From Escherichia coli (GTDB lineage: Bacteria > Pseudomonadota > Gammaproteobacteria > Enterobacterales > Enterobacteriaceae), in assembly GCF_013315695.1 (NCBI RefSeq), contig NZ_CP054353.1: a stretch of 64,000 nucleotides of DNA, one strand, 5' to 3'. Below the pieces are notes generated by a model that searched no databases, was not told the DNA's origin, and saw only the letters and a list, made by a program, of their open reading frames with translations. The position numbers and the translations under genes were made by a program. Below, one piece after another: positions 29,187 to 29,320 of the stretch. Position 1 is the first letter of the stretch; the number at the start of each line of letters is the position of its first letter.

Positions 29187-29237
29187 TAAGGCACGCTCGT
29201 ACGAGCCCTTATAGACCAGGTAGTACACGTTTGGTTA

Positions 29238-29263
29238 GGGGGCCTGCATATGGCCCCCTTTTT
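29238..29263 (+). terminator. Intercistronic attenuator/terminator between rpsB and tsf (GGGGGCC-loop-GGCCCCC + U5)
   Basis: 7-bp G/C stem followed by TTTTT, 52 nt after rpsB stop. Confidence 0.65.
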
Positions 29264-29320
29264 CACTTTTATATCTGTGCGGTTTAATGCCGGGCAGATC
29301 ACATCTCCGAGGATTTTAGA

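Follow-up and report, generated by a model that had tools for sequence, protein, structure and literature searches.

The small dispersed repeats of Escherichia coli that concern us here, and their variability between strains, have already been described. A REP unit measures about 35 bp and follows the pattern GCC(G/T)GATGCG..CG..CTTATC(C/A)GGCCTAC. Bachellier et al. reportedly described a further repeat, RSA, which is said to be about 152 bp long and to occur in about 6 copies in K-12, and the attenuator of the rpsB-tsf operon was reportedly studied by Aseev et al. in 2008. ERIC elements number 19-21 in K-12 according to the literature. TMECO (BoxC) motifs vary widely in number between E. coli strains, which have 1 to 29 of them, and their palindromic pairs are frequently lost altogether (PMC4666352). 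In the rpsB-tsf operon, monocistronic rpsB transcripts stop at an attenuator before tsf, and about one third of transcription reads through (PMC2834685). CssrA is an sRNA of Shigella flexneri of about 110 nt on northern blots, whose 5' end was only estimated from that size (Peng et al. 2011, PMC3071730).

We analysed one 64-kb stretch of E. coli DNA, called the window below, which is collinear with MG1655 160456-224413. In all likelihood it represents the repeat-free version of five strain-variable intergenic sites, at each of which K-12 has a small dispersed repeat; such differences are ordinary strain-to-strain variation. The first-pass annotation had proposed, from remembered K-12 coordinates, that five spacers are shorter here and that the strain lacks several small intergenic repeat insertions of K-12. 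Both proposals stand: the remembered coordinates agree with NC_000913.3, in which we checked the K-12 genes, and with the alignment, and alignment and element identification concur on the missing insertions. Megablast of the whole window against MG1655 160000-228000 returned collinear blocks of 94.5-99.5% identity, broken exactly at the five named spacers, which are unequal in length between the two genomes. At hrpB-mrcB, 8 bp of the window (4082-4089) stand against 110 bp in K-12 (-102 bp); at fhuB-hemL, 32 bp (12904-12935) against 155 bp (-123 bp); at rpsB-tsf, 10 bp (29193-29202) against 133 bp (-123 bp); at pyrH-frr, 3 bp (31095-31097) against 145 bp (-142 bp); and at nlpE-yaeF, 25 bp (55739-55763) against 195 bp (-170 bp). 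None of the five K-12 inserts found a match anywhere in the 64 kb by blastn-short or pattern scans.

Strain MSB1_4I (NZ_LR898874.1), isolated from a human rectal swab in Australia, differs from the first 39,999 bases of the window by a single base. Among the named strains, CE10 (O7:K1), which we take to belong to phylogroup F, is 99.1% identical to the window across 24 kb.

The comparison with K-12 also revealed differences of other kinds, three of them changes in length that are missing from the list of the first-pass annotation. The mrcB-fhuACDB block (4090-12903) is 94.5% identical to K-12 with 42 gap columns, compared with 98-99.5% for the rest of the window, which suggests a recombined or diversifying fhuA region. 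The cdaR-yaeH spacer (22958-23007) consists of 50 bp with a 9-pair hairpin, against 85 unrelated bp in K-12 (-35 bp). The phosphodiesterase gene yaeI (K-12 b0164) is absent, and 129 unrelated bp lie between yaeH and dapD (23546-23674) where K-12 has 842 bp (-713 bp). As judged from sequence comparison, this absence looks like a loss in the window's lineage, because an outgroup Escherichia genome (L016) is K-12-like at this site; it is K-12-like at cdaR-yaeH as well. Finally, an IS4 of 1426 bp (47938-49363), which K-12 lacks, lies between accA and ldcC in the accA terminator hairpin. It is flanked by an 11-bp target duplication, CACTTCGGTGG, with copies at 47927-37 and 49364-74, and the RefSeq annotation of the matching genome names an IS4 family transposase.

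The rpsB-tsf spacer (29187-29320, plus strand), delimited by the open reading frames and the K-12 alignment, is compact, lacks an ERIC, and measures 134 bp against 257 bp in K-12. The RefSeq annotation of the near-identical genome NZ_LR898874.1 likewise gives 134 bp. RNA folding predicts four hairpins on the plus strand. The first, H1 (29186-29212; stem AAGG..GCUC GUAC GAGC..CCUU), directly follows the double rpsB stop TAATAA, and its sequence is conserved in alignments with Citrobacter, Kluyvera and Pectobacterium. Its top, ACGCTCGTAC at 29193-29202, is the 10 bp exchanged in K-12 for the 133-bp insert. H2 (29214-29236; ACCAGG...UUUGGU) is conserved between genera. H3 together with its T-run (29237-29264), recognized by both terminator scan and fold, forms the intrinsic terminator that corresponds to the rpsB attenuator before tsf; of the 8 pairs in its stem (29237-29259), 7 are GC, the run TTTTT comes next, and the same sequence is found in K-12. 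H4 (29273-29299), also conserved between genera, lies 5' of the tsf ribosome-binding site, whose Shine-Dalgarno sequence GAGGA we read at 29309-29313 upstream of the tsf ATG at 29321. A t44 RNA (Rfam RF00127, 83.5 bits) is located 5' of the rpsB coding sequence at 28347-28433, as it is in K-12.

The K-12 counterpart (190606-190738, 133 bp) carries the features of an ERIC/IRU element, not of REP. Adjacent matches to the ERIC1R and ERIC2 primer sites, each with 19 of 22 bases (3 mismatches), occupy 190654-190697; these are standard primer sequences, found jointly in 233 papers. The insert has a 26-bp terminal inverted-repeat alignment and folds into a single long hairpin (z = -6.6 for the K-12 spacer), leaving H2-H4 as in the window. 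In effect, the top 10 nt of H1 are swapped for the ERIC while the AAGG/CCUU stem base is kept, yielding a stem-loop of about 130 nt. The left end is flanked by TA (TTGA-TA-ACTCCCCC), whereas no clear TA is seen at the right end. The family is dispersed: E. coli genomes have matches at 2-16 places, the median being 10. Scanning the window with up to 5 mismatches allowed returned no ERIC1R or ERIC2 site, and a literature search for ERIC linked to rpsB or tsf found nothing. We also considered the 12-bp perfect palindrome GCTCGTACGAGC as an excision footprint and rejected it, the hairpin being conserved in distant genera with no trace of ERIC.

What the ERIC may do to the transcript can be outlined from this anatomy. 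Transcription from the rpsB promoter would mostly end at the attenuator, and the remainder would read through to give the rpsB-tsf message. An ERIC, if present, would only extend H1 to the long stem-loop within the rpsB 3' UTR and would leave H2-H4 untouched. The other four sites show the same pattern of occupation with other elements in K-12: an inverted BoxC/TMECO pair at hrpB-mrcB, BIMEs of REP units in place of plain terminator hairpins at fhuB-hemL and nlpE-yaeF, and an ERIC-like palindromic element at pyrH-frr.

One described RNA overlaps the variable segment. The Rfam model of CssrA (RF02798) spans the right arm of the ERIC through H3, the attenuator; K-12 scores 136.2 bits with it, and the window scores 53.6 bits, under the gathering score of 93. 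We found no promoter-like site that could drive CssrA in the K-12 rpsB-tsf spacer, ERIC included, and for this reason a CssrA-type RNA is more likely to be a processing product of the rpsB 3' UTR. We infer that a strain without the ERIC is little affected, except that its 3' UTR is shorter and that the RNA of about 110 nt loses the portion derived from the ERIC; we assume that the difference between the two states is functionally neutral.

At pyrH-frr (spacer 31045-31193, plus strand, 149 bp), alignment and folding indicate an intact long hairpin at 31065-31103 in the window, and the 145-bp palindromic element of K-12 replaces positions 31095-31097 within its 3' arm. This element is 135-145 bp long with inverted ends of about 20 bp (GTCTGG.TTAT.AGGC) and folds as one hairpin (z = -4.9); the median genome has it at 5 places, and a K-12 MG1655 record has it at 6. 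A scan with the REP consensus found no match in it. The element instead has a central core in common with ERIC, in the same orientation (score 49 versus 24 ± 4.6 for shuffles), a similarity that 1 shuffle in 2000 equalled. The element is probably what older literature calls the "RSA" repeat, an equation that we assume; its length and its 6 places in K-12 are compatible with the description of RSA. A literature search for that description found nothing.

We then asked how common the two states are by sampling 60 records at even steps down a ranking of 5,424 complete E. coli genomes. Considering rpsB-tsf and pyrH-frr jointly, 37 of the 59 informative records have both elements (BL21, DH1, O111 and O121 among them), 14 have neither (including ST131), 7 have the ERIC only (including O157:H7) and 1 has the pyrH-frr element only. 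In agreement with these counts, a copy at least 95% identical occurs in 75% of the records for the ERIC and in 65% for the pyrH-frr element.

Beyond the species, we scanned species-representative genomes, which yielded 87 loci and 85 usable rpsB-tsf spacers; E. fergusonii, E. albertii and Salmonella enterica subsp. enterica were not among them. The spacer is 116-153 bp long and window-like in 73 of the 85 Enterobacteriaceae species genomes, and the hairpin ACGCTCGT is common to Citrobacter, Kluyvera and Pectobacterium. Because of this prevalence and the shared hairpin, the compact spacer is the family's common form, and on the sequences at hand we take it to be the original one.

The filled form is found in several places in the same scan. 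Three non-coli Escherichia lineages (L016, L052 and L076), whose sequences are 94-96% identical to the window and to K-12, carry a K-12-type ERIC with the same junctions. The same ERIC junction recurs in Salmonella arizonae, Citrobacter amalonaticus AUH, Intestinirhabdus alba and two Enterobacter-like genomes, and Pseudocitrobacter faecalis has a K-12-type ERIC at rpsB-tsf with an internal deletion. By comparison, Citrobacter youngae CCUG 30791 and two other Citrobacter genomes (loci L013, L066 and L081) harbor an ERIC that was inserted independently, with a TA duplication, about 15 bp downstream of the K-12 site. At pyrH-frr, the K-12-type element occurs outside E. coli only in the two Escherichia outgroup genomes of the scan that reach that spacer, L016 and L052; the L076 locus ends before it. 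The pyrH-frr spacers of other genera contain ERICs at several positions and in both orientations (L029, L032, L037, L047, L055, L056, L064, L071, L086 and L087), so that this spacer, like rpsB-tsf, is a hot spot for ERIC-type elements in other Enterobacteriaceae.

These distributions bear on the direction of change. Since the nearest outgroups are filled and the distant genera empty, the difference within Escherichia could mean that the ancestors of K-12 gained the elements, that the lineage of the window lost or replaced them, or that the sites have long been polymorphic or exchange their two states by recombination. The K-12-type ERIC in three non-coli Escherichia lineages argues that the genus has had the filled state for a long time. 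In addition, the filled forms lack the 10 bp (ACGCTCGTAC) and the 3 bp (ATC) that the window has at rpsB-tsf and pyrH-frr, so that the empty sites are not clean pre-insertion sites and a plain account in which K-12 gained an insertion is incomplete.

Among the alternatives to our reading, the one that survives best holds that the window's lineage secondarily lost or replaced elements present in the Escherichia ancestor and that K-12 gained none. It draws on the K-12-type ERIC of L016, L052 and L076, on the pyrH-frr element of the first two, on the resemblance of L016 to K-12 at yaeI and cdaR-yaeH, and on the single ERIC junction found in Salmonella arizonae, Citrobacter amalonaticus AUH, Intestinirhabdus alba and Enterobacter sp. 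Cy-643, whose identity across those genera implies one old insertion. Against these observations stands the 10-bp hairpin top of the window, which is as in Citrobacter, Kluyvera and Pectobacterium and which deletion of an ERIC could not recreate. Nor did substitutions cluster near the rpsB-tsf indel, as they should if a tract had been imported: window and K-12 differ at 2 positions of the rpsB coding region and at 0 in the rest of the spacer. Short forms also occur in ST131 strains and in genomes near CE10, which we take to be early-branching E. coli lineages. On balance, secondary loss or replacement is a serious possibility, though one we think somewhat improbable.

A related and more ambitious proposal is that the top of the rpsB 3' hairpin, with or without the ERIC, is an old polymorphism that several species share. 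Both forms would be kept, or repeatedly exchanged by recombination through the ultra-conserved rpsB and tsf flanks, because they differ in how the rpsB 3' UTR is processed or in the ratio of S2 to EF-Ts that they set. The empty H1 hairpin indeed persists in other lineages of genera that also bear the filled form. We nevertheless consider this proposal unlikely as a whole.

The reading of the window as a repeat-free version of sites occupied in K-12 extends to the remaining three spacers, where the identity of the K-12 inserts decides a further question. The first-pass annotation had labelled all the missing sequences as possibly of REP/BIME type, and the label fits only two sites. Between the convergent genes fhuB and hemL (12903-12936), alignment and folding give one GC-rich hairpin of 10 pairs (12908-12930) at the place taken in K-12 by a BIME of three REPs; between the convergent genes nlpE and yaeF (55739-55767), they give a 7-pair hairpin followed by UUUU (55745-55762 plus the tail), where K-12 has a 195-bp BIME. 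Both K-12 inserts match the REP consensus with 0-2 mismatches, have 32-34-bp units in common that are 94% identical, and recur at no fewer than 40 places per genome in every genome; by these sequence features they qualify as BIMEs. At both sites the K-12 BIME stands instead of the window's terminator hairpin, not beside it. With the same consensus, none of the five window spacers gave a match. The statement that the 64 kb hold no REP-like unit at all is slightly off: a consensus scan located one solitary REP-like palindrome between tilS and rof (53394-53427, minus strand), the only one in the window and identical in K-12.

The hrpB-mrcB spacer (4080-4173, plus strand; alignment break at 4082-4089) lacks an inverted BoxC/TMECO pair of K-12. 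Scanning with the TMECO (BoxC) pattern, CCCTCNCCC N3-6 GGGNGAGGG N3 GGGNGAGGG, we found two motifs in K-12, at 164547-164579 (plus) and 164598-164631 (minus), and none in the 64-kb window. Table 1 of PMC4666352 lists TMECO no. 1 and no. 2 at K-12 164547-164580 and 164631-164597. The window's spacer has no notable fold here (z = -1.1), so the earlier description of each spacer as holding only a simple hairpin applies to four of the five and fails for this one. The idea that all five spacers are short through missing REP/BIME elements thus accounts for fhuB-hemL and nlpE-yaeF, which do differ by REP/BIME clusters, but it is contradicted by the ERIC/IRU at rpsB-tsf, by the BoxC/TMECO pair at hrpB-mrcB, and by the ERIC-like palindromic element at pyrH-frr, present in 5-6 copies and without a REP match; we regard it as highly improbable.

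The same sample of complete genomes places these sites in context. At hrpB-mrcB, 21 of 59 records are short, 35 are K-12-like and 3 are intermediate (+38 bp). The short form prevails at fhuB-hemL (41/59), where the K-12 BIME is the minority form, and is found in only 6 of 60 records at nlpE-yaeF, the remainder carrying BIMEs of several sizes, from about +120 to +170 bp upwards. In this sample, window-type short forms account for roughly 25%, 35%, 36%, 69% and 10% of genomes (rpsB-tsf, pyrH-frr, hrpB-mrcB, fhuB-hemL and nlpE-yaeF, respectively). All five sites therefore vary among complete E. coli genomes, and the short forms are not assembly artefacts, because each recurs in many of them. That the differences arose from misremembered K-12 coordinates or from repeats collapsed in assembly has next to no chance of being right, given the agreement with NC_000913.3 and short forms in roughly 10-69% of complete genomes, by site.

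In practice, these results mean that intergenic lengths in K-12 are no neutral standard for the species, a point of little import beyond bookkeeping. Within these 64 kb it carries four kinds of small repeats that are missing at the same sites in about 10-69% of complete E. coli genomes. ERIC-PCR and REP-PCR fingerprints would differ in strains like that of the window, as would 3' UTR or sRNA annotations carried over from K-12 or Shigella, such as CssrA. The rpsB-tsf site also offers a natural variant pair for asking whether an ERIC alters mRNA processing or the S2 to EF-Ts ratio.

Compared with the described systems, the K-12 rpsB-tsf insert resembles ERIC/IRU elements (Sharples & Lloyd 1990; Hulton et al. 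1991; Wilson & Sharp 2006) in its core with both primer sites, its length of about 127-133 bp, its imperfect-palindrome hairpin, its intergenic, transcribed location and its dispersed copies. The window has none and displays the unoccupied site, of which the occupied form misses 10 bp. As for REP/BIME (PU) sequences, K-12 has 2-3 REP units of alternating orientation between the convergent genes at fhuB-hemL and nlpE-yaeF, whereas the window has plain GC-rich terminator hairpins at these two sites. At hrpB-mrcB, K-12 has two BoxC/PIT/TMECO intrastrand-triplex motifs (Holder et al. 2015, PMC4666352), which form an inverted pair of the A+B type. With respect to the rpsB-tsf operon attenuator (Le Derout et al. 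2010, PMC2834685), window positions 29237-29264 are identical to the K-12 attenuator, so that the two differ only in the length of the upstream 3' UTR and the attenuator itself is unchanged. Of CssrA, the window contains the 3' half of the model, comprising H2 and the attenuator, but not the 5' half, which is the right arm of the ERIC.
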